64,000 bases of DNA from positions 9,159-73,158 of the IMG/VR virus record IMGVR_UViG_3300043446_000899; one strand, given 5' to 3'. Position numbers and translations under genes: made by a program. This document shows, one piece after another, positions 10,895-28,295 of the stretch; the first letter of the stretch is position 1, and every line of letters begins with the position of its first letter. This stretch comes from a virus. The notes beneath the pieces are model-generated. The model made no database searches. It was not told the origin of the DNA and saw nothing but the letters and a program-made list of their open reading frames with translations.

Positions 10895-13594
10895 TTATTT
10901 ATATTTATTTAACCAGCCACCGTTTTCTTGTTGTCTAATGTGACCAGCAGCTCTTCTTTCAGAAAGATGTTCTAGAATGTCTCTTAATTGATCTCTGTTA
11001 AGTTCATTTAAACGAATTCTATCTCTATGCCCTGTAATTGTTTCCATAACATCTCTATCAGGAATAATTCCATGATCTTGAACTTGATTACGAATGATAT
11101 AAGCCATATCAGTTCTATCTTGATTAGCTCTACGTGCCTCCTGTTCTCTATGTCTTTCTAATAACTGTTTACTATTTGTACGTTCTACTGATTGGATTTC
11201 GTTATCTCTTATATCTCTAAGATAATTTTCTTCAAACAGTCTATCTTCTCCTTCTAACTCTTGATCTAAATTATTTAAATTACGTTCATAGTCAGCATGT
11301 ATACTATTTATTCTTTCTTTCTTTAATTTGTTAGCAGCTTTTATATCACTAGGATTAAATTTAGAAAGTGCTTCTAATCCACTCTCTTCATTGAATGCCT
11401 TTAAACCTTTTTTACCAGCCTCTTTTAACATTCCTGTCACCCTAGCATTTGGATTCTTAATAGATATAGCTGTAGGAGTTTCATAGAATCCTGGAAAAAA
11501 TCTATCACCTGTAACATTAGACATTGGGAAATTTAAACCTGTAGCACTATTTAATCTTTCAATAGGTCTATCCATCTCAGGTTTATAGTTTTTAACAAAC
11601 TGATCATAGCTATCTGGTTCTTCCTGTCTAGCATATCTTAACATTTTCATGACAGGATTGTTATCTTCCTCGTATGCAAGCTTTTCTCTAACTAGTCTAT
11701 TTCTTTCTTCAGGAGCAGCATTTTTAATCCTATTCTCCCAATCTAATTGATTGTTCTTAAACTCTAATAGCTCATTACTATATTTTTGTTTTATCTCAGC
11801 AGGAATAGCATCTTCAACACGTTTACCTCTCCAACCAAAGAAGTTAGTAGGTTGCATTTCTCCAGTTCTTACAGGAGTTAAAGTTTTTGCTTCTCTTGTT
11901 GCATTTGTAAAATACAAAGGAGTAGAGTTTATACTCATGTTTAAATCTCCCAACATTGCTCCTGCTGGAGCATTTGCTTTCTCTGCTGCAATTTTAGCAG
12001 CAACTTCTTCAGGAGTCATTTTAAAATATGCATGATGCATCATGTCTCCAGGTAGTTCTTTAGCAGTTGTACCTGAATATATTGCATTTCTTAATCTCTT
12101 ACCTAAAGATGGAATATCTGATGTAGCATTAAATGTTTTCACTCCTTGTTTAACCAATGGAGAAAGTTCTTCACCAATTGCTGTAGCACCTCCAGCTACT
12201 CCATGTACAAAAGGAACAGCTTGTAACAAATCTCCACCAAGTCTTACTCCTGTTGCTAACGAAGGATCTTTTATAAATTCATATCCTGCACTAGGAACAT
12301 CCCCCACTGCATTTATATAACTCATTGGGTTAACTATATTCACAGCATGTTCAAGAGGGTTTAACGCACCCCTATCAAAATGCTCAGGTAATCCTCTTCC
12401 AGCAATAGCATATTGAGCTGCTGTTACAGGATTACTAAGAACTGCCATAGCTTTAGACATAAAAGATCTAGGTGCTTCAGCAGCACTAATCTCTCCTCTA
12501 TTAGCCAAATACTTATTAAGTCTATCTTGTTCTTCAATTTGTGCAACTTCTTTCTGACTTAAATTCTTAGAAGTTGATTTAGTAGTACCAGATTTAACTC
12601 CTGTAGTAATACTTGTTTTAGGATTACTCTCAGTTAATGTAGCAGCAGGTAATCCTCCTCCTTTTTGATATTTATCTGCCCAACCACCTTTTGGATATTC
12701 TGTTACCTTAGTTCCTTCAAATTTATAATCCTTACCAGGTTGCATTAGTTTAGTATCTCCTGTATCAGATATACCAAGTACAGGATAGTCTACACCTTTC
12801 ATTGTAATTTGGTTAGAACCTATTTCTGTTATCTCACCTGGATGAGCCCATTGACCCATGTCATCTTTAATTACAGAACCATTCTTGCTTATAGTTTTAG
12901 GTTTGAAGTCTAATCCATTTTGATAGAATTCCATCTCATGACCATTCTGTGCACTAGCTTTAGTCTTCTTAGTATACTTACCATTAGCAGGAGCAGATCC
13001 AGCTGTACGTGCGTACATGAAGCCTACAGCACCTGGCATACTTCCACCCATTTGTTTTTTCTTAAGAACACCTGTTCCTTTCTTATATCCATTATCTGCA
13101 TACCATGCAGCTTGTTCATCAGTAGGAAACTTTATAAATTGTCCTGTTTTATTAGCATAGTTCCAAGCAGCATTTTTATCATTCTGATTCAAATACTGGA
13201 GCTTTCCGTTAGGCATTTGTACTACTGTAGGATAAGCTTTACCATCTCCTGATTCCATAAAATGAGTAGATGTACCACGTTGTCCAGGTATTTGTATAGA
13301 ACCTGCACTCTGATCAAAATATCTTTGTACAAAGTTTAAGTCACCTTTTCTAGCATTATGAATACTATCTACCCAAGCTGTTCTATCTGTATTCCACAAA
13401 CTACCACCATCTTGAAACTGTCCACCCCATGCAGGAGAATAGTTTCTACCTGTTGTATCATAACCAGCTCCTACAAAACCAGGGCCCACTGATGCTTGTA
13501 CATCATTGACATTAGCTTTTAAGTCATAGTTATCTTTGGTCTTTTTCTTTAAAACCAAACCCCCTTGTTCGTATTTGTCTAACCACTTAGCCAT
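10895..13594 (-). CDS. large virion protein (899 aa), function unknown
   Basis: Long ORF. Its start overlaps the stop of the downstream gene at 13594. Confidence 0.6.
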   Translation of the reverse strand: MAKWLDKYEQGGLVLKKKTKDNYDLKANVNDVQASVGPGFVGAGYDTTGRNYSPAWGGQFQDGGSLWNTDRTAWVDSIHNARKGDLNFVQRYFDQSAGSIQIPGQRGTSTHFMESGDGKAYPTVVQMPNGKLQYLNQNDKNAAWNYANKTGQFIKFPTDEQAAWYADNGYKKGTGVLKKKQMGGSMPGAVGFMYARTAGSAPANGKYTKKTKASAQNGHEMEFYQNGLDFKPKTISKNGSVIKDDMGQWAHPGEITEIGSNQITMKGVDYPVLGISDTGDTKLMQPGKDYKFEGTKVTEYPKGGWADKYQKGGGLPAATLTESNPKTSITTGVKSGTTKSTSKNLSQKEVAQIEEQDRLNKYLANRGEISAAEAPRSFMSKAMAVLSNPVTAAQYAIAGRGLPEHFDRGALNPLEHAVNIVNPMSYINAVGDVPSAGYEFIKDPSLATGVRLGGDLLQAVPFVHGVAGGATAIGEELSPLVKQGVKTFNATSDIPSLGKRLRNAIYSGTTAKELPGDMMHHAYFKMTPEEVAAKIAAEKANAPAGAMLGDLNMSINSTPLYFTNATREAKTLTPVRTGEMQPTNFFGWRGKRVEDAIPAEIKQKYSNELLEFKNNQLDWENRIKNAAPEERNRLVREKLAYEEDNNPVMKMLRYARQEEPDSYDQFVKNYKPEMDRPIERLNSATGLNFPMSNVTGDRFFPGFYETPTAISIKNPNARVTGMLKEAGKKGLKAFNEESGLEALSKFNPSDIKAANKLKKERINSIHADYERNLNNLDQELEGEDRLFEENYLRDIRDNEIQSVERTNSKQLLERHREQEARRANQDRTDMAYIIRNQVQDHGIIPDRDVMETITGHRDRIRLNELNRDQLRDILEHLSERRAAGHIRQQENGGWLNKYK

Positions 13595-14460
13595 TATTTG
13601 TAAGAGATTTGAGATGGTGTAATGATGAATTGAGATACCAAATGAGCTTCTGATGTGTTATCAAGAATATGTCTAACCTTCAACTCTTTTGCTCTTAGTG
13701 GCTCTTTCTTATATGATCTTTTTCCATAATCCATATTAGCTTGATTTACCACTTTATCTATTGATAATGACTCACAGCTCACCTCAAACAAAGGTACGGA
13801 TTTATTTCTAACCAAACTCCAGAAAGTATTATACTGATAGAAATTATCTGACTTAGTGTACATGATAGTTTTACTCTCAGTACCATAGATAGGATATTGT
13901 AAATATGCTTTTAGGTTATTGATTGGTTTTGGTACCAATTCTAATATACCTGTAGATTGTTGACCATTGTACAACACGGCTTTATTAAACCAATGATTGT
14001 CTGTTTCAATCTGAGCGTTATCATTAAACACACCATCTGGAATAGGTAAATACTTATATGCCTTAGTGTAATCTTTTACATTCTGAAGGATTTCATCATA
14101 TGACTGATATGAGAAAGGATACTCAATAATATAAGGTTCTATATTACCATAATAGAAATTATAGATCATTGTATTAGTAAGATGTCTCCACAATGATGCA
14201 GTGTTAATTGGAGTGTATGTCACAGCTGCTATTTCTTCAATAGTCATTTGTGTAATAGCCATCTCTATTACAGTGTGACATTTACCTGTAGATTCTAAAA
14301 CAATCATTTCTACAGAATCAGAAACAGTCACTGAATATCCATCAATGAGATTACTCTTAGATATGTTTGTACCTAAGACTGTTCCCAAGTCATCGTAGAC
14401 ATTGAAAGGTCCTGTTCTGTTTCCAGCTCCTGTTAATTTTATAATTACCGTTTTAGACAT
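13594..14460 (-). CDS. tail fibre/spike-family protein (288 aa) with the shared N-terminal adaptor domain
   Basis: N-terminal ~65 aa (KLTGAGNRTGPFNVYDD...ISKSNLIDGYSVTVSD...IVLESTGKC) aligns with the N-termini of the ORFs at 22594..23232 and 23244..24527. Confidence 0.55.
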   Translation of the reverse strand: MSKTVIIKLTGAGNRTGPFNVYDDLGTVLGTNISKSNLIDGYSVTVSDSVEMIVLESTGKCHTVIEMAITQMTIEEIAAVTYTPINTASLWRHLTNTMIYNFYYGNIEPYIIEYPFSYQSYDEILQNVKDYTKAYKYLPIPDGVFNDNAQIETDNHWFNKAVLYNGQQSTGILELVPKPINNLKAYLQYPIYGTESKTIMYTKSDNFYQYNTFWSLVRNKSVPLFEVSCESLSIDKVVNQANMDYGKRSYKKEPLRAKELKVRHILDNTSEAHLVSQFIITPSQISYK

Positions 14461-14489
14461 CTATATTAAATTTATAATATTCTATTGTA

Positions 14490-17400
14490 TTAAGAAACAT
14501 AAACTGCTGTACCATCCAATGTACAATCCAAAGGAACTGCTGTAGTAGTACTACTTGTAGTTGGAGTAGGAATTTCTTGAATAGCTATTGCATGTAAGTC
14601 ACATCCTTCATTCAATCCACTATAGAAGAAGTTATTCTCAGCTATGTAGAAGTTAGGAATGTAGCTATGGAAACTCACCCAGCTTTGAGTGTTTACACTA
14701 TATGATAAAGTCCAAGACTTATTGCAGAAATATTCTCTATCTGTTAAATCAACAACCTTTCTTAATGTAAGCTGACCATAAGCTTTGTTTATATAATACT
14801 CACCAGTTGTAGCATCATATTGAATAACACCAACATATTGTGGTTGAGGAATATAGTCAAGTTTAGAAATAATAATTCTATCATACTTACTATCATATAC
14901 ACCATGTAAACCACAAGCATTGAAGTGATTATCTGTATCAGCATTAGGATAGTAACGTAAGATTTCAAATGCTAAATGGTCTGTAAAAAACTTGTTAAGT
15001 CCTGAACCAAATGCAGATAAATCTTGTATTTGACCACCTATTCCACCAATAAGAAACACTTGTCCTCTCTTAGCATCAATTGTTATTTGACCGTTAGGAA
15101 TCTTTAATAAGAACTTATTCTGACTTCCTACATATCCAAGATCTGTTTCTGCAAAGTCAATTGGAGGAGCAGATCTAAATAATGAAGGATTGCCTAAATA
15201 AGCAGCTTGAGGATTACTTGTGTTCATTGTTAACAATGTATTGTATAACAATGACTTATTCTCAAAGCGAGCAAGGATAGCTTTGTTCTGAATACCATCA
15301 AGAGATACTAAGTTACCATAGTTTTGAGGGAAATCAAAATATGATATAGGAGCATAGTTTAACCAGCTATTTACTCTAACACTTGGATTATCAGCTTGTG
15401 CCTCAGAATAGATTGCTCTGAATGGGAAGTTGGTATAACATTGATTATCATCCCAATCTACAGGTAGATGTGAGAAGTAATTCTCTTTGTTTTGCTTTGA
15501 GTAAGTTACATTATAAGTGTAAGTGTTATCAAACTGAATAGGAACAACAGATTGTTGTAACCAGTTATCAGGGATACCTGAGCTCACGTGTGGGTAGAAG
15601 TCACCTTCTAAGTTATTAAATGCCTGACGTAAGTCCACATTTATAGAACTCTCCACATAGTAATAAGGAATACCATAAGCAAATAAATACATCTTACCAT
15701 CATATGAGTAAGTTGAATCACTCATTGTTGTACTTCCTGGAGCAGGTGTAGTAGATGTAGTGGTAGTTGTATTTTGAAGAGCTGTGTAATCATTAGGACA
15801 ATCAAAGTAGTGAGCTTTAACTGATATAATGTTTTTCATCAAAGTTGGACCAGCCATGTAATTGCTTAATATTGATCTAGAAGAATACCAGTATTGTGGG
15901 TATGCCACATTACCTAATTCATCATAGAATATATCACTATCATCAGGAGCACCCACTCTATTATCAATAAAGAATGGAAGCTTAGTCTTATATGCAAATC
16001 TACCAATGAATGTATCTCCACCAAATACAGTTTCAACTCCTGCTACATCTGTCAGCTTTTTCTGGAAACCTGTATCAATTGTATTGTAAGAATACATCTG
16101 TCCCCATTGGTTGATGTTTATATTTTTTATAGATCCATAGTAAGAAACCACTTTAATTGGTTCTTGCATTTCTGGAGCACCGCAGTTATTCTTTTGTGAG
16201 ATTGTGAATCTTGAATCATCAGTAATTAAACTGTTTCCAGCAACTACTAATGATGGAGTTTTTTCAGCAAACGGTAATGCACTTATAGTATCTGGTGTTT
16301 TTAAATAAACAGAAGATTCTCTTTGATAGTTATTTACATTATGAATATCTCCTACTGATTGTACACCAGGGATAAGGTATTGATACAAAGAAAGTTCTCT
16401 TTGTTTAACACCTAATCCATTATCAATATTTGCATTATAATCATATTGAGCAACAGAGTTAAATGAATAAGCAAAGTTTCTCTTACTGATACCATTAATG
16501 TATATTTGTAGATATGCTTGGTATGCAGTAAACATTGCTGTTGCATCTAGTGTACCTGTAATCTTAGCAATATTATAACTAGAGTTAAGAGCATCTACTT
16601 GAGCTTGCTTACTAACAAGTTTGTATAATGCGTGCTTTTTAACTTGTACAAAGTGTGCTTTACCTCCTCCAAATACAGCACTTTCTAGTTTAAGAATATT
16701 ACCTAGATAAGGTTGTCCAAAGGAAGTTTCTGGTGAGTTAAAAACCATTCTATATTTAGAACTGTCACCAAATCCATTTAAGTTAACTGGATAGCAATTT
16801 GTATTTTTATTATTAGTTGCCTCTAGTATTGTATATTTATTAGATCCACTCACGTACGCAGGTACGGTTGTAGAGCTTACTGTAAGGGGTGTATTTGGTG
16901 TAACAGTTGTATTAACACTTACTAATGAAACTGGATCAGTGTATGTAAATGCTGTAGATGAACCATATGCAGTTAATGTATAAGCAATTGCAGTGACATT
17001 TGTAAATGTAGCAGCTCCTTTGATTACAAGAGGAACTGTAACAGAACATATAGTAGTCATGCTCAAAGGCATATCAATAGCAACCACCTCACCTGAATAA
17101 CAGTCAGTATATTGTAATGTACCAGCAGTGGTAACAACTACCTTAAATGTTTGACACTGAGAGTTATATGCATTGTTCTGTGCAAGTAAGAATGGGTCAG
17201 TCTTAATGTCATTATAAGGGTAGTTAGGATAATAGTAGTCAGTACCTTCTCTATTGTATGTACCAACGTTTCTTAACATACCTTTTGCTACAATAGACTT
17301 ATTAGTAGATCTATCACCTCTAACAATCTTATATGCAACTATATCAGCTTTTTGTTCAGCTGTTAAATTAGAATTATTAATCAACGATGCTACCTGTTGT

Positions 17401-18983
17401 GTACTTATTTTAACACCAATAGGATATAAAGCATTAGCTGTTTGTAACTCTGGATTAGAATAGTTTGGAGTTTGTGATTCAAATATAGGGCTAACTAATA
17501 CATCTGGAAACTTGTGATGTCTAATAGGTGTACCAGCAAGACTTCCCCAAACAAGTGTGTTACAAGGATATTCTTCTCCAGATTCCCAATACGCAAACTC
17601 ACCATATTGATAAGGTGTAGCGTTTCCAATATTAGGTCCTACAGCAGTTCCTATTACAGATGCTGTGTTGTATATTTTCCAATAAGGAGCAGATGTACCT
17701 TCACCAATGTAGTCATCATTGCTGGACTTATTTACTGTAACTAAGTCATCAGCTGTAGCTTCTCTACCAGGAATGTGGAAACCATCTGTCTGTTTACCGT
17801 TCTTTAATAAGAATACAATCTCAAAGGCATACACCTCATCTCTAAGGTATCCTCTTAAGTTTGTAGCATTCAACTCATCTGCATAGTTCTCTCCAGCAGG
17901 AATCTTATATGTTTGCCATTGAAGATCAATCTTATTAGCAATTTGCTGATAGTTAATCTTATCAATAGATGTAAGCTGGTCCCATACAAGAACATCTTGT
18001 ACAGCAGTTAAGTCTTGTGCAATATCGTAGTATGGAAACTTCTCAAATATATCAGCAGTTGATAAACTAATTGCTGTTTGATTTTGTCCTGTGTAAGTTA
18101 TTTGTTTTGTAGCACTGTCAATAAAATATGTACCAACTAATTGTACAGATGTAATATCATTGATAGTCTTAATAACAGCTAAGTTATAATACTCAAAGTA
18201 TCCTGTTAGATCAATATTGCTTATATCAATTACAATAGACTTACCTACAACATAATCAAAATTAGTTGTGGTAAGTTGAGGATTAGCAATAGGAGTGGGA
18301 TTTGTTACAGAGTAATAAGATGTGTAAGCATCTCCTTGAGCACTACAGTATTGAATAGCAAACTGATACGTACCAGCTTTTAATTCTCCACCATTAATAA
18401 TACTATTAATAGTTAAGTTTGGAATGCTGAAGTTAGGCTGTATCTTTAATTTATTACAGTCAAGTACTGGTATAACTACAGGATCACAGATAACATCATC
18501 TGTAAAAGTTGTAATATAAGGAATGTTTTCAAGGTCTAAATATCTTCTAGGATTAAGACCATCTGTCCAATATATCTCTGTAGTACAGTTTGAAATCTTA
18601 TGTACTACTTTTTGGATAGGGTTATTAATGTTAAAATTTAAACATGCTCCTTCTACATAAGTGTGATAGACACAATCATTATTATTCATGTATCCAATCT
18701 GAGAAGCTCCTGTTTCAGGATTTGTCAAAAAGAATATATGTTGATTCTTTTCTTGGATGAAATGAGTTCCAATAAGATGAAAGTTCTCAGGAAAGTTTAG
18801 ACATAATTCATTACCTGGTTCATTCTGGTAGTTTACAGCAGTAGCATCAAAGTTCTCAATAGAAGCATTTAAAGCATAAGTAAGCTTACCTTTCTCAACC
18901 TGGTTTACAGATGAATCCATATTTAATCCAGTTCTACCTAGATTAAACTCCTGTCTGATATTTCCTTGTTCTTGATCTGCCAT
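14490..18983 (-). CDS. very large tail/baseplate-associated structural protein (1497 aa)
   Basis: 4.5-kb ORF. Internal Thr/Ser-rich linker (TTTTSTTPAPGSTT) and a C-terminal TTSSTTT stretch. Structural arm. Confidence 0.6.
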   Translation of the reverse strand: MADQEQGNIRQEFNLGRTGLNMDSSVNQVEKGKLTYALNASIENFDATAVNYQNEPGNELCLNFPENFHLIGTHFIQEKNQHIFFLTNPETGASQIGYMNNNDCVYHTYVEGACLNFNINNPIQKVVHKISNCTTEIYWTDGLNPRRYLDLENIPYITTFTDDVICDPVVIPVLDCNKLKIQPNFSIPNLTINSIINGGELKAGTYQFAIQYCSAQGDAYTSYYSVTNPTPIANPQLTTTNFDYVVGKSIVIDISNIDLTGYFEYYNLAVIKTINDITSVQLVGTYFIDSATKQITYTGQNQTAISLSTADIFEKFPYYDIAQDLTAVQDVLVWDQLTSIDKINYQQIANKIDLQWQTYKIPAGENYADELNATNLRGYLRDEVYAFEIVFLLKNGKQTDGFHIPGREATADDLVTVNKSSNDDYIGEGTSAPYWKIYNTASVIGTAVGPNIGNATPYQYGEFAYWESGEEYPCNTLVWGSLAGTPIRHHKFPDVLVSPIFESQTPNYSNPELQTANALYPIGVKISTQQVASLINNSNLTAEQKADIVAYKIVRGDRSTNKSIVAKGMLRNVGTYNREGTDYYYPNYPYNDIKTDPFLLAQNNAYNSQCQTFKVVVTTAGTLQYTDCYSGEVVAIDMPLSMTTICSVTVPLVIKGAATFTNVTAIAYTLTAYGSSTAFTYTDPVSLVSVNTTVTPNTPLTVSSTTVPAYVSGSNKYTILEATNNKNTNCYPVNLNGFGDSSKYRMVFNSPETSFGQPYLGNILKLESAVFGGGKAHFVQVKKHALYKLVSKQAQVDALNSSYNIAKITGTLDATAMFTAYQAYLQIYINGISKRNFAYSFNSVAQYDYNANIDNGLGVKQRELSLYQYLIPGVQSVGDIHNVNNYQRESSVYLKTPDTISALPFAEKTPSLVVAGNSLITDDSRFTISQKNNCGAPEMQEPIKVVSYYGSIKNININQWGQMYSYNTIDTGFQKKLTDVAGVETVFGGDTFIGRFAYKTKLPFFIDNRVGAPDDSDIFYDELGNVAYPQYWYSSRSILSNYMAGPTLMKNIISVKAHYFDCPNDYTALQNTTTTTSTTPAPGSTTMSDSTYSYDGKMYLFAYGIPYYYVESSINVDLRQAFNNLEGDFYPHVSSGIPDNWLQQSVVPIQFDNTYTYNVTYSKQNKENYFSHLPVDWDDNQCYTNFPFRAIYSEAQADNPSVRVNSWLNYAPISYFDFPQNYGNLVSLDGIQNKAILARFENKSLLYNTLLTMNTSNPQAAYLGNPSLFRSAPPIDFAETDLGYVGSQNKFLLKIPNGQITIDAKRGQVFLIGGIGGQIQDLSAFGSGLNKFFTDHLAFEILRYYPNADTDNHFNACGLHGVYDSKYDRIIISKLDYIPQPQYVGVIQYDATTGEYYINKAYGQLTLRKVVDLTDREYFCNKSWTLSYSVNTQSWVSFHSYIPNFYIAENNFFYSGLNEGCDLHAIAIQEIPTPTTSSTTTAVPLDCTLDGTAVYVS

Positions 18984-18988
18984 GATTA

Positions 18989-19957
18989 TTAATTATTTCT
19001 TCTCCAGCCGTATCTATAACTTCTGTTTGGTAATTCGTACATATTGAACCTGTTAAGGTCATTCTTAATCCTTCTCTGCTTTTCCCAAGGAGTTTGTTTT
19101 TTGATTTCAATATCTGCCATGATAAATGCTTCATCAGCTAACTGCTTGTAGTAAGCAAGTTTCTGTTGTATCTGCTGGAAAGTTTCATCATTGATTTGGT
19201 TAGATAGTGTTTCAAATACTTTGTACTTGATAAACGCTTCTATAAATTCTCTAACACGGTAGTTATCAGGGATTAACTGATTACCAATAGCATCATACTC
19301 TGTAGCATAAAATAGCAAGTGCACAATACCATTTCTAAAGTTAGTAACAAACTTATTGTCTCTGATATCAAAGCTATCATAGCTAGCTGAACCAGGAGTA
19401 AATTCATGTACTGTTGGAGGTGGAGAATAAAACTCCCAAGCATTACTATATTCAACCTCACAGTTCTGTCTAGCAGAAATGTTACCTGGTCTTAATAAGT
19501 ATTCATGTCTATAAGATCTAGCTACCTGCTGATTGGTTTTGTATACAGCTTGTATAATCTCAGGCATACAACTAGGGCATCCTGTTGTACATTGAGGATT
19601 AGTACAAGGTAAACCACCACTTGTAACAGGGGCTACTTGTATTGTTGTTTGTGATGCAGCTTGAGAATAGAATGAGTTAGCTGATTGGTATGGATATCCA
19701 GGAACCTCAGTACACATCCAAGCTTCTCTTGCAGCATAGAAGTTATCAGGAAGTCTGCATTCAAAGTCTTGAATCTCCAGAATCTCTTCACTAATAACCA
19801 AAGTGGTCCTACCTAACTTTCTAAGACACTTGTCTAAGTAAGTAGGGAAAAGCAAATCATCCACAGCTCCTGTGTCAAAATAGCTTTTTAACTCCTCTTT
19901 GACAGTTGAGTAAACTGGCTCAGGAGATACAAATCTGTATTTGTAATAGTATGACAT
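18989..19957 (-). CDS. hypothetical structural protein (322 aa)
   Basis: ORF tightly packed in the structural arm. Confidence 0.5.
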   Translation of the reverse strand: MSYYYKYRFVSPEPVYSTVKEELKSYFDTGAVDDLLFPTYLDKCLRKLGRTTLVISEEILEIQDFECRLPDNFYAAREAWMCTEVPGYPYQSANSFYSQAASQTTIQVAPVTSGGLPCTNPQCTTGCPSCMPEIIQAVYKTNQQVARSYRHEYLLRPGNISARQNCEVEYSNAWEFYSPPPTVHEFTPGSASYDSFDIRDNKFVTNFRNGIVHLLFYATEYDAIGNQLIPDNYRVREFIEAFIKYKVFETLSNQINDETFQQIQQKLAYYKQLADEAFIMADIEIKKQTPWEKQRRIKNDLNRFNMYELPNRSYRYGWRRNN

Positions 19958-19960
19958 AAT

Positions 19961-20437
19961 TTATTTTTTCCACTCACGATAGATATGTTGATACGTATCG
20001 TTTGTTTTTATATAATGTGAGAGTAATCTTGATGTAACTCTAGAAGGTTTGAAATACCACAAGTCTACATTTCTTAGCCTGGCAGTTTCTTTGAACCATA
20101 TCCAACCAAAAAAATAACCTTCTGTGTGGTAATTAAAATTGTATATAATTTTCCCTCTTTCTTTAGACTTCTTCCAGTCTACTGGTAAGTTAACGTATTC
20201 CTTACCATTGATATCTTTTACCTTCTTTCTTTTCTTCTTATTGATAGAGAACTCACCAAACCCAAAAGGGAGCTTAGCTTTCTCACCAGTTTCTAATATG
20301 TAACTTTTAAAGTTCTCATTATACTGATATATAATGTTTCTCCACTCATCAAATGTAATTTTAATTGTGGGATGTTTCTTGCAAAAGTTATTGTAGTTTT
20401 CTTTACTGGAGCTTCTCCAATCAATCTTTGTCCTCAT
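19961..20437 (-). CDS. hypothetical protein (158 aa)
   Basis: Stop/start coupled with its neighbours. Confidence 0.45.
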   Translation of the reverse strand: MRTKIDWRSSSKENYNNFCKKHPTIKITFDEWRNIIYQYNENFKSYILETGEKAKLPFGFGEFSINKKKRKKVKDINGKEYVNLPVDWKKSKERGKIIYNFNYHTEGYFFGWIWFKETARLRNVDLWYFKPSRVTSRLLSHYIKTNDTYQHIYREWKK

Positions 20438-21171
20438 TACTGCGTTGGTTGTGCATTAGGAGCTTGTCCATCAACACCGTTATCTGTCATATCCGTTTTG
20501 ATATTGAAATATGTAGATAATAATTTTTGGGATGTAAGCTCTAACACTTGTTTTTCAAGGTATCCTGGACAAGCATATTCTTTGTCCAAAGGATTCTTAC
20601 AATATTCCTCATTGGTTACTTCAGGGCTAGAACCACAACCACACTCTGGATATGCAATCTCATTAGGTATATCTTCTTCAAAGAATGCTGATATCCTAAC
20701 TGATTTTAAATTTGGATTACTCAAATATAAGTAACCTCCATTTGCTATCCAATAGTAAGTTTGATTTTTTATAATAGGAAGTTTCAATAGATTTAAATAT
20801 CTATTGATTGTAATTTCTTTAAATTTAGTTCCTTGTCCACCCATAGCATTTATGGAGTAGACACCTTGAATTAAATATTGGTAATTTCCTTCTGTGATTC
20901 TAGGAAGTTTGTATTTGCTTCTAGAAACAGTACATGGATCTACGTAGTTGCAACATTCAGAAATAGGAACTTCAACCATTTCCAAACATTGGATGGTATC
21001 AAAGACAGTATCAGTAGCCCAAAGCTTTCTGAGATTTGTCTCACGTTTAACTAATAACTGTGTGTTGTTTCTAATCTCTGATGCAATAACCCTATCTGTA
21101 ATAAGGTTATCCGTGGATATAAGCTTATGCATTCCACGCACATCTGAAACTAACTTACGTAATGTTGCCAT
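20437..21171 (-). CDS. hypothetical Cys-containing structural protein (244 aa)
   Basis: Start/stop overlap (ATGA-type coupling) with the flanking genes. Confidence 0.5.
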   Translation of the reverse strand: MATLRKLVSDVRGMHKLISTDNLITDRVIASEIRNNTQLLVKRETNLRKLWATDTVFDTIQCLEMVEVPISECCNYVDPCTVSRSKYKLPRITEGNYQYLIQGVYSINAMGGQGTKFKEITINRYLNLLKLPIIKNQTYYWIANGGYLYLSNPNLKSVRISAFFEEDIPNEIAYPECGCGSSPEVTNEEYCKNPLDKEYACPGYLEKQVLELTSQKLLSTYFNIKTDMTDNGVDGQAPNAQPTQ

Positions 21172-22412
21172 TATAAATACTGTTTAAATATATTTGTCAT
21201 TCCTGAGGCTTCTTCTATTAAGAATCCTGTCACTTCAGCTTTAGACATTGTGTGACCGTTCTTATCATCCCAAAGACTCTTAGCATTTGAAAATGCTGGG
21301 ATTTGGTAAAACTTGATACCATTGAAGTCTTGACTTACTTCATGGTGTTTATCTCCTGTGAATATATAAAAATTATTGTGAAAAGACCAACCATTTTTAA
21401 ATTCCATTGGAAATAATGCTGCTAATTTAGCAGGCTTTATTGCATCTCCGTGGTTAAACATTAATGCTGAATTTCCATAACTTACATACTTTCTATACTT
21501 AGGAGAGCAGTCAAAGCTAACTCTTTCTGTATTTCTAAAGAAAGCTTCTAACCAAGTAATCATATGCCACCCAGCGTACTCATCATGGTTACCAGCTACA
21601 TATACTACATTTACATTTGTAGCATATTGTAATAACATTGTAATCACTAATATCTCATGGTCACAGATAAACTTGAAAGAATCATGGTATGTGTGAGTAT
21701 TAGTTTGAGGAGTACCTTTTGTTGTGGTTCCTGTAAATTCACTATTGAATTCATCAGAACCAATGATGTATGTAATTTGCTCTAAGTTATTTGAAATTGT
21801 TGCTTGGTTAGCAATTAACTCTAACTTGTATACAAGCTCTGCCAACCTTTGTCCTATGTTGTTGTTACCATCAATATCAAACTTATTCAAGTGAGAGTCT
21901 TGTTTGTTAATAACTAACATGGCAGGGAACTTATTTCCCTCCCACTTAGGACTCATAACTTCTTGACTTACAGGCTCATATGAAGCTAAAAAGTCTACAA
22001 AGCTATCTTGAAAAACTTGCTCTGTAGACTTTTTCCCCAACCAGGCTTTTACCTGCCAATGAGGGTTTTCTCCATTTCCCCAGTAGTTTTGTACGTATTT
22101 AGTTATTTCCCATTTATCTGTGTCAATCTTACACTTCTCAATAAGATCTTCTAAGCTTTTAATTTCTTCTGTAACGTTAGCTACAATCTCTCCAGTTCCT
22201 TTAACTAAGTCTTCTGTAAACTTGACTATTGTGTCTTCTAAGTCAGCTATATAGTTACCAACCACCGCTTCATCATGCCTCTTTCTAATATCTGTTAACA
22301 ATTCGTCAATCTCTAATTCTGTCACTCCTAGCTTCTCAGCGTAATATTTCTTTGATTTTTTCCAATGTAACATTTGCTGAAGTTGCTCTAAAAGGGGTTG
22401 ATTTCCAGACAT
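21171..22412 (-). CDS. calcineurin-like metallophosphoesterase-domain protein (413 aa)
   Basis: VAGNHDEY (the GNHD/E motif), followed by NHGD and GDKHHE. Upstream DSH and GSDEF fit the motif I/II order. N-terminal ~170 aa extension. Confidence 0.5.
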   Translation of the reverse strand: MSGNQPLLEQLQQMLHWKKSKKYYAEKLGVTELEIDELLTDIRKRHDEAVVGNYIADLEDTIVKFTEDLVKGTGEIVANVTEEIKSLEDLIEKCKIDTDKWEITKYVQNYWGNGENPHWQVKAWLGKKSTEQVFQDSFVDFLASYEPVSQEVMSPKWEGNKFPAMLVINKQDSHLNKFDIDGNNNIGQRLAELVYKLELIANQATISNNLEQITYIIGSDEFNSEFTGTTTKGTPQTNTHTYHDSFKFICDHEILVITMLLQYATNVNVVYVAGNHDEYAGWHMITWLEAFFRNTERVSFDCSPKYRKYVSYGNSALMFNHGDAIKPAKLAALFPMEFKNGWSFHNNFYIFTGDKHHEVSQDFNGIKFYQIPAFSNAKSLWDDKNGHTMSKAEVTGFLIEEASGMTNIFKQYL

Positions 22413-22523
22413 ATGGGTTTTGAGTTTGGTTAAAATTGATGTAAAGATAGGAAACTTTTTTCATATTTACCAAATTTTATTAACTAATTTAATTATATAG
22501 TTTAACTAACTTGATTAGAGTTC

Positions 22524-22557
22524 AAATAAAAAACCCCCAGCCTAGAAAGGCCAGGGG
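22524..22557 (-). terminator. rho-independent terminator after the fibre gene 22594..23232
   Basis: GC-rich hairpin CCCC(C)aGCCT-agaa-AGGCcaGGGG in an AT-rich region. On the minus strand it is followed by UUUUUUAUUU. Confidence 0.45.
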
Positions 22558-22593
22558 ATACTCTGTAAACCAACAAACAGAGTTTTTTATCTT

Positions 22594-23232
22594 TTAGCAC
22601 GCATAATTGTTCTCACATGCTCCATTTATAATAACTGTGACAATTGTACCACCTATATTTACCGTTTGACCATTTGTCAGAACTCCCACTCCAGAAACAA
22701 CAATTGGAGATCTTCGTTTCCAACTATTAACAGAGCAAGTCATAGGTGAATTACCTGGTCCAGAACCATAATTCATACCTGCTGGTATAGTGATTGGATT
22801 GCCAGCTATGTCATCAGATTCTTCATATGGTCCACAATTGTTTACATGTGAACCATCTACATTAGCAGTAGTAATTGTTACAGGTACACTTAACGCATTA
22901 GTTAATGTGAATATAAAGTACCCACCTTCATAGTTTTCAAAAGTTAACGTAGAAGTTGGAGGTGGAGGTATAATTGTTGTTGTACTAGTAGTTGTTGTAG
23001 TAATAGGGGTAGGAGCTCCAGATACATCTAGATATAAATCTCTCTTACATGCACCTGTAGATTTTAAAAGCACATATGTAGTTCCATCAGGAACAGTTGC
23101 AGTATATCCACTTAATAATGCAGCTTTGCTAATTCCTGATGTAATAACGTTTGTAAACCCATCTACATTAGAATATAAGTTAAAAGGTCCTGTATCAGAA
23201 CCAGCTGTTGTTAATGTTATTAATACTATCAT
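22594..23232 (-). CDS. tail fibre/spike-family protein (212 aa): shared N-terminal adaptor, poly-Thr linker, Cys-containing C-terminal domain
   Basis: N-terminus TLTTAGSDTGPFNLYSN...ISKAALLSGYTATVPDG...VLLKSTGAC is paralogous to 13594..14460. Contains a TTTTTSTTT linker. Confidence 0.55.
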   Translation of the reverse strand: MIVLITLTTAGSDTGPFNLYSNVDGFTNVITSGISKAALLSGYTATVPDGTTYVLLKSTGACKRDLYLDVSGAPTPITTTTTSTTTIIPPPPTSTLTFENYEGGYFIFTLTNALSVPVTITTANVDGSHVNNCGPYEESDDIAGNPITIPAGMNYGSGPGNSPMTCSVNSWKRRSPIVVSGVGVLTNGQTVNIGGTIVTVIINGACENNYAC

Positions 23233-23243
23233 ATTGGTTTATT

Positions 23244-24527
23244 TTAAGTTAGTTTTGTCCAGCTAGCTCCACTGTCTATAGATCTCCAAATTCCTGTTTG
23301 CTCTGTTGCATAAGCATATCCTGTGTAAGACATTGCTACATCACCCCAAGCTCTACTTCCTGGCCCAGTAACTGCTGTTACGGTTCCAAGATTAGTTGAT
23401 CTGTAGATGTAACCAGGATCATAAGTTGTAACAATTAAATTGTTTCCTGTACCATCCATAGCAACATTTGTCCATTTCTTTTGAGTTACACCAAACGTAG
23501 TCCATGTAGCTCCACTATCAGAACTTTTTACTAATAATGTGTTATTCAATAAAGCAGGTGCATCAAAATATCCATAAGATCTTGCAATAACTTGAACTGC
23601 TCCGTTTGAAGACATTGCACAATCAAAATTGTTAACACTACCATCTACTAGTTTTGTAGTAAAGGTTGCTCCACTATTTGTTGAAACATATGCTGCTCCA
23701 TCAAAGTCAGTGCTACTGTTTGGAGAAACTAATAATTGAGTTTGTCCATTTGAACTAATTGCAGATCCATAAATAAAATATTTACTGCCATCAGGTGCAT
23801 TATTTGTTCTGGTAAAAGTTGCACCATAAGTTGTTGATAACCAATACTGTGAAGTTTGAAACCAATAAGCTGAATCGTTTCCAGGATAAACTTCATCTAC
23901 ATTAGTTGCTGTAGCCATTACGTATTGTCCTGTTCTAGAAACACTTATTGAAGACCACGCACGTGGACTGGTAAATGTAGGAACTTTAAACCAAGTAACT
24001 CCGTAATCTTGAGATCTCCATATCCATTTACCAGCACTAGTATTAGTTTCAACTACATACATGTATTGCCCTGTTCCAGAAACACCTACACTTGCACAAC
24101 TTCCACCAGATGCAAAAGCCATAGTGACATTTCTAAAACCTGTTCCGTAATTATCTGATATTTTTAAAATATTTGTTCCTGTTTTTCCTATTAGTACATA
24201 CTTTCCATCATTGCTTGTATTAACATCATCTCTACTCACTGCAACTTTGTAATAGCTTTGTCCACTTGTAGGAGGATAGGCTGTAGTTGTTGTAGTGGTT
24301 GTAGATACACACGGAATACTTTGTGTTATTGAGTTTGTACAAAGCCCTGTAGATGTAATAGTAACTAAAGTTGCTGCATCATCTACACTTACAATCTTTC
24401 CTGCCAACAACTCAGTCTTAGTACCAGTTGATGGAGTCACACTTCCTATGTCTGCTGTAAGATTAAAGTTTGGACCTAAGTCACTTGATAGACCACCTCC
24501 TAATATTAATGTTATACTTCTTGCCAT
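23244..24527 (-). CDS. BNR/Asp-box repeat (sialidase-like beta-propeller) tail-spike protein (427 aa) with the shared N-terminal adaptor
   Basis: Five SxDxGxTW/F-type Asp boxes (SQDYGVTW, STTYGATF, STNSGATF, SSDSGATW, SIDSGASW). Poly-T linker. The N-terminus is related to the two paralogues. Confidence 0.55.
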   Translation of the reverse strand: MARSITLILGGGLSSDLGPNFNLTADIGSVTPSTGTKTELLAGKIVSVDDAATLVTITSTGLCTNSITQSIPCVSTTTTTTTAYPPTSGQSYYKVAVSRDDVNTSNDGKYVLIGKTGTNILKISDNYGTGFRNVTMAFASGGSCASVGVSGTGQYMYVVETNTSAGKWIWRSQDYGVTWFKVPTFTSPRAWSSISVSRTGQYVMATATNVDEVYPGNDSAYWFQTSQYWLSTTYGATFTRTNNAPDGSKYFIYGSAISSNGQTQLLVSPNSSTDFDGAAYVSTNSGATFTTKLVDGSVNNFDCAMSSNGAVQVIARSYGYFDAPALLNNTLLVKSSDSGATWTTFGVTQKKWTNVAMDGTGNNLIVTTYDPGYIYRSTNLGTVTAVTGPGSRAWGDVAMSYTGYAYATEQTGIWRSIDSGASWTKLT

Positions 24528-24539
24528 TTATTTTATCAA

Positions 24540-25403
24540 TTATACACAACCACTATCACAAGTTGCATAAGCGTTTAAAGTTAATGTATTTCCAATATCT
24601 CCACTTGTTACAGTATATACTCCTGTAAATAAGTTTGTTGAACCTGATCCACAAGCTGCATCTGCAATTATACCTACTGTCCACGCATTTGCAGTACCGT
24701 TGTTACCACTGCAACCAGTAGAACTTATTTCAACATTTATTGTATCACCAACATTTACTGGCCATGTTCCAGTTGAACTACTATTTCTATCTTCAATAAC
24801 ATTACCATTTAAATATAAAATCATTTCACCAGTTGCTCCAATACCTTCATTAAAACTCCACGATAAAGTTGCAGATGTTGGACTGTTACAAACTATGTTA
24901 AATCCATTATAATTACATGTAGGTATATAAACAGTCGTAGTTGTTGTAGTAGTACAAGGACCAAATCCTGGACAACAGTTTCCATAAGTTATTTCACGTA
25001 AACCACTGCCATATATAGATCCTCTTAAAATACCACAACCTGTATATCCACCTGGATCTTGAGTTGTACATCCAACAATGACAACAGCAGTACCAGCTGC
25101 TACAAATTGAGTTTTACCATTACCTGAACAATCTTGATATGTTACATATTGATCAATTGCTCCTTCTAAATCATTATATACAGTAACTTCTCCAACACAA
25201 GGACAAGGGTAGTCTTGATATTTAGGAGCTCTATCGTTAGTATATGTGGACCAAGGAATAGCTGATTGATCTATGTAATAGTTAGCATCAGCCTCTCCTT
25301 TGTTCATGATGTTTCCATCTAAAGGAGGGGTTGCTCCAGGTTTCTTTACATAACCCATTGTAGCAAGGTCTGCACCTGTTACTAAATAGTTGTTAACTTT
25401 CAT
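24540..25403 (-). CDS. Cys-rich fibre-associated protein (287 aa) with poly-Thr linker
   Basis: TTTTTTT linker and many Cys pairs. Its start overlaps the stop of the collagen-like fibre gene. Confidence 0.5.
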   Translation of the reverse strand: MKVNNYLVTGADLATMGYVKKPGATPPLDGNIMNKGEADANYYIDQSAIPWSTYTNDRAPKYQDYPCPCVGEVTVYNDLEGAIDQYVTYQDCSGNGKTQFVAAGTAVVIVGCTTQDPGGYTGCGILRGSIYGSGLREITYGNCCPGFGPCTTTTTTTVYIPTCNYNGFNIVCNSPTSATLSWSFNEGIGATGEMILYLNGNVIEDRNSSSTGTWPVNVGDTINVEISSTGCSGNNGTANAWTVGIIADAACGSGSTNLFTGVYTVTSGDIGNTLTLNAYATCDSGCV

Positions 25404-27163
25404 TATTTTAATTTAGCTTCTAGTTCAGCAATACGTTTTTCTAATTGTGCTATTTTTAATGTATGCACATCTGAATAGTTTACCACCAATTTATCTTCTC
25501 CTGCTACAGCATCTGGTAATATTGATTGTACCTGCTGAGCTGAGTAACCATATCTAATTTGATCAGACTCTTCATCTATACGTGTAAATTTAATTACATC
25601 TATTCCAGATAAGTCTATGTTAGGATTTGTTTCTAATACACTCTTAAATCTAATATCTGATGTCTCATAGAATGACCCAGCATTCAATTGAGATCCAGCA
25701 ATAGTAACTCCTGTATTAGCTGTGGCAGTGTTTGCTGTACCATTAGCTGTAAGTACAGCCCCTGCAGTAGTTGGAGATATGCTAGTAAATCCTGCACCAG
25801 AAGTTCCAGAAGTTCCAGAAGTTCCACTGTTTCCTGAAGTACCACTTGTACCAGTTGTTCCTGAAGAACCAGACGTTCCACCAGTACTAACTCCGCTTGA
25901 TCCACTTGTACCAGTTGTACCAGAGCTTCCTGAAGTACCACTTGACCCTGAACTTCCAGAAGTACCTGATGTTCCACTAGTACCAGTTGTTCCAGAGGTA
26001 CCTGTGGTGCCTGAAGTACCTGTTGTACCAGACGTACCAGACGTACCAGTTGTTCCACTAGTTCCTGTAGTTCCGCTGGTTCCAGAGGTACCAGTAGTAC
26101 CTGAGGTTCCACTCGTACCTGTTGTACCTGAAGATCCAGCTGTACCAGAAGTACCTGAGCTACCAGCAGCACCTACAGGAACTAACATAAACGTTTCACC
26201 ATTAGAAGGATTTGTACCCTGAGCTGCAGTTTGTGTAACTACGAATCTTTCATATCCAACTTCAAAAGGAGATACAGATACAATTTCTAATATTTTAAAT
26301 CTAGAAGAATCAACAGTACTAACTAACTTAAGTGCTGAGTAAGGATTTAATGCATCTAGATATGCTGAGAAATCAGCACTAGGATTAAATGATAAATCAC
26401 TGATTGCTATCTGAGAAGCAGAAGCTAACCAACTTGCATCATTTAAAGTGAAATATGTGGCACCAGGATTAACGTTTGTATTTGTACTAGAATTATATCT
26501 CCATAGTGCAAGACCTCCTTCATAACCTGAAGTACCACTCGTACCTGTAGTTCCAGAAGAACCTGAAGTACCAGTTGTTCCTGAACTACCAGAGGTTCCA
26601 TCTACACCAGAGGTTCCAGACGTTCCTGAACTACCATCTACACCAGAACTACCATCTGTTCCAGAACTTCCTGAACTACCAGATGTTCCAGTAAGCCCAC
26701 TTGTACCATTAATACCACTTGTACCATTAATACCACTAGTTCCATCAGCACCTCTTCCACCAGAAGTTCCGCTTGTACCTGATACACCACTTGTACCTGA
26801 TACTCCAGAAGTACCGTTAACTCCAGAAGTACCATTGACACCTGAAGTACCATTTTGTCCAGAAGTTCCGCTAGATCCAGATGCACCATTAACTCCTGAT
26901 GTGCCATTAACTCCAGAAGTTCCGTTATGTCCAGATGTACCAGAAGTGCCAGAAGTACCTGTACCTCCACCACCTGTACCAATAGCATTATCTAATTTCT
27001 CTAAGGCTGTTGTTAATATATCTAAATTTTGTACTCCTGAATTAGGAAGATTAGGTCCTATGTATGTAACGTTGTCACTTGTTGTGCAACAGTCTTGGCA
27101 TCCACAATTTTCATCAGGATGATAGTATGCATCATAGCAAGGAGTACCAGGTAAACAGTTCAT
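25403..27163 (-). CDS. collagen-like tail fibre with a C-terminal intramolecular chaperone / S74-type autoprocessing domain
   Basis: Two long (G-T/S-S) Gly-X-Y blocks. Cys-rich N-terminus. C-terminal TSDIRFKSV matches the SDxRxK autocleavage motif of endosialidase-type chaperone domains, followed by a coiled-coil tail ([13 protein letters not shown]). Confidence 0.65.
25690..26990. repeat. collagen-like Gly-X-Y coding microrepeats in two blocks (GGTACNAGTGGNACN...)
   Basis: Visible 9-nt periodicity. The repeats generate the spurious alternate-frame ORFs at 25684..26172, 25722..26222, 26638..26988 and 26835..27122. Confidence 0.7.
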
Positions 27164-27183
27164 TTATATTTTGGTTTATAATA

Positions 27184-28287
27184 TTAAGGAATATACATAA
27201 TGTAATATGCAGCAATAACAGGTTGAATATTTGGATGACCTTGATTGCTACCAGTATTACTATTGCTAACATTTACAGTTGTAGCTACTGTGATACCTGT
27301 TGTAGAAACAGTTGTTTGTACATTTTTAGGAAGCTCATTTGTTATACCAATAGTTCCTGAGCTACTCCAACCTTTAGGAGTATATCCTGAATAGTGACTG
27401 TGACCAGGATCTGATACACTAGATGTAGCAGATGCTGTTGCAGTGTGTGTATGACTAGGAAGTTGGTTAACATTTAGTGTTATAGTATTTGCACCAGCAA
27501 CATCTTCAATATCGTAATTAGGGTTACCTGCATAGACAGGATCTACTGCAGCAGCTAACGGTCCACCAGGAACATTTAATATAGCTCCTACACCAACTCT
27601 ACCTCTTTTATCAGGAGTACCATTAGATCCATTACACAGATAGATTTTATCCCATCCTAATGAACCAATACCAGCACCTGTACCATCAAAGTTAGTTAGA
27701 GGACCATAGTATTCCACTACAGTGTAAGGAACCATTTTTAAATAGTTCTGAGTAACATTACCAGACTGACCAGCTATGTATGCAGCTATTAATGCATCTA
27801 GGTCAGCAAGTTTTACATAGTTTGTATCTACATCAAGAGCTAGTGCAGCTAAATCTGCAACCACTGAACATAGTCTTGTAATAACTGCTTGCAAGATAGC
27901 ATGGGTATCAGAAGATGCTGTTACACCTGTAAGACAACCAATGTTATAGTCTGCATTTAATGTAGCAATATCAGCAGCAACAGCAGTCACTTGAGTTTGT
28001 AAACTACAAACAGATTTGATCAATGCTGTAAATAACTGAGTAGAATTAGGAGAAGTGATTCCTGTTAGGAAACTATTAATAAGAGCACACTTATCACCAG
28101 GAGCAATAGTTATAACATCACCTGTACCAGTTAATAATGGAACAAGATGAGTTGTAATCATTTCTTCTACATGAAGTAAAGTGTCTCCTGTAGTAATATT
28201 TAGAGCAGGAATAGTTGGACCTGTGTACCTAACACATTGGTCAGAAACAGTCTCAACACATCCATTATAGCAACTTGTACAAGACAT
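27184..28287 (-). CDS. tail fibre protein with a phage tail-collar domain (367 aa)
   Basis: IYLCNGSNGTPDKRGRVGVG plus NQLPSHTHT match the tail-collar signature (xxCNG...PDLRGR...MPxHxH). The Cys-rich N-terminus resembles that of the collagen-like fibre. Confidence 0.6.
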   Translation of the reverse strand: MSCTSCYNGCVETVSDQCVRYTGPTIPALNITTGDTLLHVEEMITTHLVPLLTGTGDVITIAPGDKCALINSFLTGITSPNSTQLFTALIKSVCSLQTQVTAVAADIATLNADYNIGCLTGVTASSDTHAILQAVITRLCSVVADLAALALDVDTNYVKLADLDALIAAYIAGQSGNVTQNYLKMVPYTVVEYYGPLTNFDGTGAGIGSLGWDKIYLCNGSNGTPDKRGRVGVGAILNVPGGPLAAAVDPVYAGNPNYDIEDVAGANTITLNVNQLPSHTHTATASATSSVSDPGHSHYSGYTPKGWSSSGTIGITNELPKNVQTTVSTTGITVATTVNVSNSNTGSNQGHPNIQPVIAAYYIMYIP

Positions 28288-28295
28288 TTTTATAA

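Follow-up and report, generated by a model that had tools for sequence, protein, structure and literature searches.

What is the role of a protein domain that a single virus carries at the front of three proteins which otherwise have nothing in common? This question is raised by a stretch of viral DNA of 64,000 nucleotides, hereafter the window (IMG/VR record IMGVR_UViG_3300043446_000899, positions 9,159 to 73,158). In the window, three open reading frames (ORFs), all on the minus strand, begin with the same segment of ~70 residues, hereafter the N-domain: A (13594-14460, 288 amino acids, aa), B (22594-23232, 212 aa) and C (23244-24527, 427 aa). Judged from its gene content, the window corresponds to the structural (virion) module of a crAss-like podophage that has not been cultured; an earlier reading of the letters alone (the sequence-only reading) had assigned A, B and C to the tail, and they do lie in or beside the tail genes. 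One of them, A, contains the end of the muzzle protein of the tail, the gene for which is split in this lineage. The answer that we favour, as probable but well short of secure, is that the N-domain is a portable, constant anchor that displays exchangeable adhesin-like cassettes at the tail of the phage, and that this display is centred on the derived split in the muzzle gene.

A large family of N-terminal domains

The sequence-only reading had described a common N-terminus in front of unrelated C-terminal parts, and on both counts it was right. In composition-adjusted BLASTP, the N-termini of A and B match with an E-value of 4e-13 (47% identity over 60 aa), those of A and C with 7e-8, and those of B and C with 1e-4, i.e., beyond what composition bias produces. 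The alignments are confined to the first ~70 aa, and the C-terminal parts have no BLASTP similarity to each other. Sixteen columns are invariant across the three domains, GPFN and STGxC among them. A hidden Markov model (HMM) made from the three sequences and run against the six-frame translation of the window retrieved A, B and C only, with the next match at E ~1. Thus, the similarity is real and is limited to three copies in the window. These copies are residues 1-69 of A (14254..14460), delimited by BLASTP to B and C, and residues 1-70 of B (23023..23232) and 1-73 of C (24309..24527), delimited by BLASTP and the HMM; all are on the minus strand. In the AlphaFold2 (AF2) model of A, the domain has a confidence score (predicted local distance difference test, pLDDT) of ~90 and comprises strands at residues 2-7, 19-23 and 28-33, a helix at 35-40, and strands at 42-47, 52-58 and 62-68. 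The order of strands and helix is the same in the model of C, in agreement with the common domain proposed from the letters alone. The domain is predicted to be a small β-sandwich with one short helix.

A profile search of a library of 1.84 billion proteins, clustered at 50% identity, yielded 1,652 cluster representatives at E<=1e-3 and 392 at E<=1e-10; the best 150 representatives were used for counts of architecture. The N-domain starts at about residue 1 in 149 of these 150, in proteins of 71-932 aa. It is followed by a Thr-rich linker in 107 of 153 sequences (A, B and C included), and BLAST sorts the sequences behind it into 74 clusters that are unrelated to one another. Long members of the family are chains of small Cys-containing domains with poly-Thr between them. 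The kinds of domain found in the family, which give at most an indirect hint that the cassettes may act on host receptors, include BNR propellers, VWA domains, Gly-rich domains and Kelch-like repeats; Pfam has matches behind the N-domain in four of 131 representatives (Gly_rich_2, BNR, VWA, DUF6465), and no Pfam glycosidase or lyase family occurs there in any of the 131. Across the same 131 divergent representatives, GP, G, S and C residues of the domain are invariant, the Cys being a lone one. Three paralogous types (A, B and C) are maintained across genomes, and these are 60-78% identical within a type and 33-36% between types. Many proteins whose C-terminal parts are unrelated begin with a domain that is ~75-80% identical to the C-type domain of C.

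This large family is new, in that it is annotated in no library searched: the domain has no match in Pfam, NCBIfam or PHROGs, none among PDB sequences, none in 50,697 GenBank phage genomes and, in a single-sequence scan, none in bacterial genomes. In BFVD it is present only in the uncultured Virus NIOZ-UU157, with a homologue of A (59% identity) plus another two carriers. Neither the domain nor a muzzle in two parts was found described in the literature.

A muzzle gene in two parts

The C-terminal part of A, which the sequence-only reading had classed as unknown, is the C-terminal end of the muzzle family. The ORF that precedes A (14490-18983, minus strand) is a Crassvirus muzzle protein (Pfam PF25731, crAss_MUZ; E 4.5e-37, 128.2 bits where the cut-off is 27). 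The core of this ORF (residues 1-1459; 14607..18983, minus strand) carries the crAss_MUZ match and is colinear with the muzzles of Lbo-JY46 (a Leptolyngbya phage), FpV4 (a Flavobacterium phage) and crAss001 (gp44). Residues 88-288 of A (13597..14199, minus strand) are the detached C-terminal segment, as recognised by PHROG profile, tblastn and pairwise alignment. Residues 88-286 match positions 1588-1781 of the 1783 in phrog_15100, i.e., the last 194, and the front of the same profile matches the muzzle ORF. The fragment corresponds to residues 1461-1654 of 1654 in the unsplit muzzle of Lbo-JY46 (3e-24; tblastn and alignment) and to residues 1766-1961 of 1961 in the unsplit gp29 of FpV4 (9e-15). 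In pairwise alignment the junction is seamless: residues 817-1459 of the muzzle ORF correspond to Lbo-JY46 854-1457, and residues 88-288 of A to 1461-1654. The N-domain is missing from both of these unsplit muzzles (pairwise alignment). Closer, syntenic relatives with an unsplit muzzle were also found: L100 (1,625 aa), L117 (1,598 aa) and L091, a contig from a metagenome-assembled genome (MAG), in which the unsplit junction reads ...NNFFYSGKNIGTAEAWKHLTN... and the identity to the fragment in A is 67%.

Compared with the unsplit forms, the split form has an insertion of four parts: residues 1460-1497 of the muzzle ORF; a TAA stop codon; a spacer of 29 nt between this stop and the start of A (14461..14489, minus strand), with the ORFs on either side in different frames; and residues 1-87 of A. 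The last of these comprises the N-domain and a short helical connector (residues 70-87; 14200..14253, minus strand; AF2 helix 74-79), in which TIEEIAAvtY...NTAS is kept in relatives. As judged from these alignments, the muzzle gene is split, and the ~200 residues at the end of the muzzle come from A. The role of A is that of a structural subunit and not of a receptor binder. Taken together, the two ORFs are colinear with unsplit muzzles; the muzzle ORF alone is not the single polypeptide, with ring-joining domain, propeller, IG1, IG2 and crass domain up to the C-terminus, that a member of PF25731 is. Members of PF25731 form hexamers at the tail tip and have a gating loop in blade 4 of the propeller. 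A alone has no Pfam match even at E<=10, and a search of the virtually rejoined muzzle with crAss_MUZ added no C-terminal stretch.

The split is not an assembly error, because A follows the muzzle ORF in both sets of relatives that were compared: the first has 43 covered loci and the second, more diverse one 35 split loci, and there is no exception in either. The domain of A is present in every split-muzzle relative examined. Its apparent loss in one of them (L118) was an artefact of calling ORFs from ATG only; the domain is present there with a non-ATG start. That read-through, recoding or a frameshift joins A to the muzzle ORF was also considered and rejected: the stop is TAA, the frames differ, and the gap between the two ORFs in relatives reaches ~1.2 kb, with whole genes in it (0-2 extra N-domain genes).

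Where does the split fall in the muzzle structure? By weak, colinear matches it maps to about residue 1200-1237 of crAss001 gp44 (1,371 aa), and positions 10-56 of the 208 in a profile of the A fragment align weakly to gp44 1238-1283 (HMM). By colinearity beyond the aligned part, the fragment would reach the end of gp44 (1371). In the published topology this region of gp44 forms the last blades of a nozzle-like propeller (PMC10172136); by colinearity with gp44, the A fragment is probably the final blades of such a propeller. A direct placement of A on the crAss001 structure was attempted without success, as hhalign of the A family against gp44 and searches of PDB sequences gave nothing. In the AF2 model of A, residues 1-85 have a pLDDT of ~90 and residues 86-288, with a shallow alignment, one below 50, as would be expected of a fragment that needs the rest of the muzzle in order to fold.

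The muzzle ORF, in turn, gained a conserved strand with a Cys and, after it, a poly-Thr linker; in relatives it gained variable cassettes as well. In the window, this extension (residues 1460-1497; 14493..14606, minus strand) consists of GCDLHAIAIQEIP, a Thr-rich linker and then AVPLDCTLDGTAVYVS, and it is not present in the unsplit homologues compared. The Cys-containing, strand-like segment at its start (GC-D-L-x-A-I-A-x-x-E-I-P) was found in 43 of 43 distinct split forms and in none of the unsplit forms, and it has no second copy in the window. In relatives the extension is 26-807 aa long, and the whole muzzle ORF ~1,497-2,400 aa. In ten of 27 extensions there is a cassette that also occurs behind the domain in N-domain proteins, with identities of up to 85% over 71 aa and 65% over 115 aa.

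Two further features of the muzzle ORF are recorded here. The motif C-x-L-x-G-T-A (14493-14540, minus strand) occurs in one to three copies after the first poly-Thr run of the extension; it was found in 28 of 28 extensions of the first set of relatives (L004-L075) and in none of 277 cassette regions. It was considered as a universal docking peptide and rejected, being missing in several more distant split relatives such as L092-L096, L112 and L119. A 'CTLTAGS' subtype of the motif is found together with inserted B-type genes, but the loci in which this is so are linked and related to each other. The other feature is a Thr-rich loop inside the muzzle core (~15714-15761, minus strand; residues ~1075-1090), which reads NTTTTTSTTPAPGSTT.

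Cassettes, their carriers and the genomic setting

B and C are free carriers of cassettes. In B there is, as the sequence-only reading had it, a poly-Thr linker; behind it are four Cys residues. The linker, evident from the sequence, is rich in Thr and Pro (residues 71-94; 22951..23022, minus strand), and behind it lies the variable cassette with its four Cys (residues 95-212; 22597..22950, minus strand), which belongs to a cluster of eight family representatives. The cassette has no match in Pfam, PHROGs or NCBIfam, and its DNA is not conserved in the closest relatives. After B there is a terminator-like hairpin of ten pairs, seven of them G-C, followed by TTTTTTATTT (22534..22557, minus strand). 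This is the strongest terminator-like site in 13400-28400, and it closes the fibre gene block that holds B and C.

In C, a poly-Thr linker (residues 74-88; 24264..24308, minus strand; AF2 pLDDT <50 at 73-84) leads to a region (residues 89-427; 23247..24263, minus strand) predicted by AF2 to be a single seven-bladed β-propeller of the Asp-box (BNR) type. The model of C has a mean pLDDT of 83 and ~28 strands (30 homologues in the alignment). Where the sequence-only reading counted five SxDxGxTW boxes, there are seven, three of the strict form SxDxGx[TS]W and four that are degenerate, at residues 124, 172, 231, 282, 335, 377 and 416, one per blade; the ~28 strands and the seven Asp-box positions give the prediction of seven blades.

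The same reading had proposed C as a candidate glycosidase or sialidase, which the propeller does not bear out. Sialidases have a six-bladed propeller with a catalytic signature (F/YRIP motif, Arg triad, Tyr/Glu nucleophile pair), and catalysis by GH74 enzymes requires two propellers, each of which contributes one catalytic Asp. As a sialidase (GH33), C was rejected: it shares the Asp boxes but has seven predicted blades rather than six, no RIP motif, and no BNR, BNR_2 or sialidase Pfam family at threshold. As a GH74 xyloglucanase it was rejected because it has one propeller of ~340 residues where GH74 needs two. The best Foldseek matches of C in the PDB were to GH74 (4e-13), Ycf48 (~4e-10, template modelling (TM) score ~0.65), sortilin and WD40 proteins. 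The GH74 targets have 685-776 residues, half of which are covered by C, with TM scores relative to the target of 0.17-0.37. Among the 50 matches listed of 1,792, all are seven-bladed or larger and none is a sialidase. Pfam Sortilin-Vps10 scored 30.6 bits, under its cut-off of 33, and the NCBIfam 'glycosylhydrolase' match was weak (28 bits against a cut-off of 175). With one propeller, no RIP motif and family matches below threshold, C is better called a binding module; on the predicted fold it is probably that, and a role as an enzyme is not supported.

A third kind of carrier draws on the same pool of cassettes. The N-terminal part of protein D (24540-25403, minus strand) is a different one, rich in Cys; a poly-Thr linker joins it to a C-terminal cassette (residues 180-287; 24543..24866, minus strand) that is found behind the N-domain in the family members P0231, P0301 and P0192; the cassette of D and that of P0231 are 49.5% identical over 109 aa (4e-27).

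The positions of the accessory N-domain genes were counted in 80 related loci anchored on a gene for a 413-aa protein (21171-22412, minus strand in the window), which lies between the fibre block and the gene for tail Ring 2. Directly upstream of this gene, at the end of the fibre block, there were 86 accessory N-domain genes, of which 74 were B-type and 12 C-type. A further 15, in 13 loci, lay between the muzzle ORF and A, and 13 of these genes were B-type. The B-type is thus the commonest accessory type in relatives; accessory N-domain proteins are 72-485 aa long. The split site is, in relatives, a hot spot for cassettes, and the same cassettes occur behind either carrier, the extended muzzle ORF or the N-domain. 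In the two informative unsplit syntenic loci (n=2), there is no N-domain gene within ±10 kb. The 413-aa protein itself matches PHROG 704, 'DNA repair exonuclease' (1.5e-43), and has, by eye, the metallophosphatase-like motifs NHGD and GDKHH; FpV4 has an 'exonuclease' at the same position, an odd place for a nuclease.

At the level of DNA, the loci have mosaic boundaries. The window and its closest relatives are ~85% identical from 22596 to 14496. Homology stops at the muzzle stop codon and returns at 14468, just ahead of the start of A. In B, it extends over the domain and into the first part of the linker, as far as ~22977, and it is back only at the stop codon. The swappable architecture of the sequence-only reading stands in part: a constant domain precedes at least 74 unrelated groups of sequences, and the DNA homology breaks off at the Thr linker to return at the stop codon. 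What does not stand is the inclusion of A among the receptor-binding proteins, and nothing in the results points to spikes or depolymerases.

The assignment of the phage is based on Pfam matches to the muzzle, tail Ring 1 (18989-19957), tail Ring 2 (20437-21171) and the Crassvirus major capsid protein (32344-33897); upstream lie a portal like that of P22 and a collagen-like fibre, the latter with a chaperone domain of the S74 type. The order Ring 2, small protein, Ring 1, muzzle and cargo-like genes is the same in crAss001, FpV4 and relatives; in PhicrAss001 the order is Ring2 gp40, Ring1 gp43, muzzle gp44 and cargo gp45 (PMC10172136). There is no DNA match to the window among GenBank phages, and the nearest GenBank capsid protein, from Lbo-JY46, is 26% identical. 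In metagenomes, related contigs of ~112-118 kb are common. The MAG bins that hold related contigs (L088-L091) are of Sediminibacterium (n=2, one contig of 112 kb), Cytophagales (n=1) and Ca. Kapaibacterium (n=1), which is a weak hint of a Bacteroidota-type host, given that binning can create artefacts.

Other features of the window were noted in passing. Inside the head module, the portal gene is followed at once by a gene for an SPFH/Band 7 protein (35344-35874, minus strand; Pfam 1e-25). The phage encodes a transfer-messenger RNA (47338-47755, plus strand; Rfam RF00023, 74.1 bits against a gathering threshold of 47, full model covered), for which ARAGORN gives the tag peptide VKSQSERVAEGASIIAMAFASEVAVAA. 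An ORF of 379 aa (29318-30457) has a Thr-rich C-terminal tail (29318-29390, minus strand). ORFs on both strands at 25684-26222, which overlap the collagen-like fibre gene (25403-27163), are by-products of GTS/GSS repeat DNA and not genes.

Readings of the domain and comparison with known systems

In the reading that we favour, the N-domain is the constant end of the carrier, the one that would contact the virus, and the variable end consists mostly of small Cys-containing, adhesin-like domains on flexible poly-Thr linkers. With the muzzle gene split, A carries the domain at its new N-terminus. B and C would be borne on the virion, and their N-domains would tether them near the muzzle, by way of another copy of the domain (e.g. 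that of A) or of a partner that travels with it. The cassettes would bind structures on the host surface, so that exchange of cassettes may shift the host range. A more specific version, which we hold to be distinctly doubtful, sees the split site as a plug-and-socket display port. The Cys strand of the muzzle would be the plug and the 70-aa domain with its lone Cys the socket, perhaps locked by a disulfide; the pair would rejoin the two pieces of the muzzle, and the same contacts, or contacts between domains, would load carriers of the B and C types. Such a pair would depend on no other part of the virion and could for that reason pass from one phage lineage to an unrelated one, as the C-type domain apparently did.

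Several observations weigh against the favoured reading. C-type domains, with 74-77% identity, are found in two contigs in which no further gene within ±10 kb is shared with the window. In one of 100 kb (L085, 10001-11152) the domain fronts a VWA domain; in the other, of 35 kb (L087, 6058-9386), it fronts a Gly-rich domain, a cassette that the upstream gene has on a different N-terminal part, and this contig, with an S78 prohead protease and a tape-measure-like gene, is probably from a long-tailed phage. Thus, the domain moves between lineages and cannot need a site specific to the muzzle. Further, in the split relatives L092-L096 and L098, A is the only N-domain gene near the tail module, so that a pairing of A with B is not obligatory. 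A collagen-like protein (P0207) has two internal copies of the domain. In a Foldseek search of the PDB, the model of A resembled no solved phage anchor and no crAss001 hub protein, the matches being generic folds only (Ig, FN3, filamin and C2-like; best E 0.5). Finally, the mapping of A to the blades of gp44 depends on weak alignments and on the published topology (PMC10172136).

Some of these observations are what would be expected if the domain were a generic Ig-like bead, structural or sugar-binding, with no anchoring function, and if B and C attached otherwise or were free proteins released at lysis. The generic fold matches, the internal copies in P0207 and the presence of the domain in unrelated phage contexts all suit such a bead, as do the long members of the family, with their small domains separated by poly-Thr. 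Against the bead stand the N-terminal position in 149 of 150 proteins and the direct fusion of one copy to a fragment of the muzzle. The strongly conserved domain (C-type ~80%) beside hypervariable partners is the pattern to be expected of an end that contacts the virus and not the host, and the cassettes behind it can be exchanged with those that the muzzle ORF itself bears; we therefore regard the bead as unlikely. Less probable again is the proposal of the sequence-only reading, in which each of the three proteins is a receptor-binding spike or depolymerase in its own right, for a glycan of its own, and C is a glycosidase or sialidase. The common N-terminus before unrelated C-termini agrees with it, and so do the Asp boxes of C, the GH74 hydrolases among the best fold matches and the weak NCBIfam match. 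However, A is a fragment of the muzzle; the one seven-bladed propeller of C is neither the pair that GH74 needs nor the six blades of a sialidase, and has neither a RIP motif nor a BNR or sialidase Pfam family at threshold; and no depolymerase-type family was found among the 131 representatives.

The third alternative, which we judge to be as improbable as the independent spikes, moves the function from the protein to the DNA. The conserved 5′ segment would be mainly a homology arm for recombination of cassettes, and the encoded domain a tolerated passenger. This would account for the gap in homology between relatives, which runs from the linker to the stop codon, for the clustering of the genes at two hot spots, and for the split itself, which resembles a tandem-cassette junction (cassette, stop, start, domain) inserted in the muzzle gene. 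However, orthologous domains are only ~74% identical in DNA, yet they keep the invariant GP, G, S and C residues in 131 representatives; the types differ by ~65%, which makes them poor partners for recombination; and the fold is predicted with high confidence.

Phages with constant-anchor receptor-binding proteins include those with T7 gp17-type fibres, SP6 and K1-5 with their adaptors, Klebsiella phages with anchor-branch depolymerases, CBA120 with TSP1-4, and G7C with gp63.1 and gp66, the last two with T4 gp10-like modules. The family in the window is like these in having a constant N-terminus and a variable C-terminus, several members per genome and a mosaic boundary just after the anchor; like the T4 gp10-like modules, its putative anchor is found in unrelated phages. 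It is unlike them in three respects. The N-domain, a putative anchor, has no likeness, in sequence or fold, to the solved anchors (T7 gp17, P22 head-binding, T4 gp10-like); the distal parts are mostly small Cys domains on poly-Thr, not trimeric β-helix spikes; and one copy of the domain is fused to a nozzle/muzzle fragment. As for C, its predicted fold and Asp boxes are those of Ycf48/HCF136, of other single seven-bladed BNR propellers and of GH74, at identities of 10-17%; Ycf48 is a non-enzymatic binding protein.

crAss-like phages are abundant, and how they recognise their hosts is poorly understood. To our knowledge, PhicrAss001 is the only crass virion with a solved structure; its fibres are on the hub collar of the tail barrel, and its muzzle is in one piece. 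In PhicrAss001, the genes for THA and THB (gp38 and gp39), which form the collar for fibre docking, are just before Ring2, and B and C are just upstream of the 413-aa gene that precedes Ring 2. The N-domain was therefore considered as a THA/THB-like hub module and rejected, since it has no likeness to them in sequence or in Foldseek searches of the PDB, which is assumed to hold the crAss001 structures. The muzzle ORF of the window is a member of the family of crAss muzzle gp44 (PF25731; Bayfield et al. 2023, PMC10172136), with the same neighbours, and A is the C-terminal end of that family. The variation described for muzzles is in length only, by insertions in the crass and IG2 domains (PMC10172136). 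Single-chain muzzles are those of gp44, FpV4 gp29, Lbo-JY46, L091, L100 and L117; in contrast, the muzzle gene of the window is in two ORFs, the first with an extension of Cys strand and poly-Thr, the second with the 70-aa domain at its front.

The lineage differs from PhicrAss001, then, in its split muzzle, in a conserved site of display and in a previously undescribed family of adaptor domains in front of hypervariable modules. If the domain is an anchor, it would explain how host range diversifies by exchange of cassettes, it would serve as a sequence marker for receptor-binding genes in metagenomic phages of Bacteroidota, and it would be a compact scaffold for the engineering of domains displayed on tails. 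If the plug and socket were to exist as well, they would be a natural, transferable system for decorating phage tails with new binding domains. Overall, the arrangement can be seen as a variation on the familiar design of phage receptor-binding proteins, a constant anchor with a variable tip, in which the domain that would be the anchor had not been described before.

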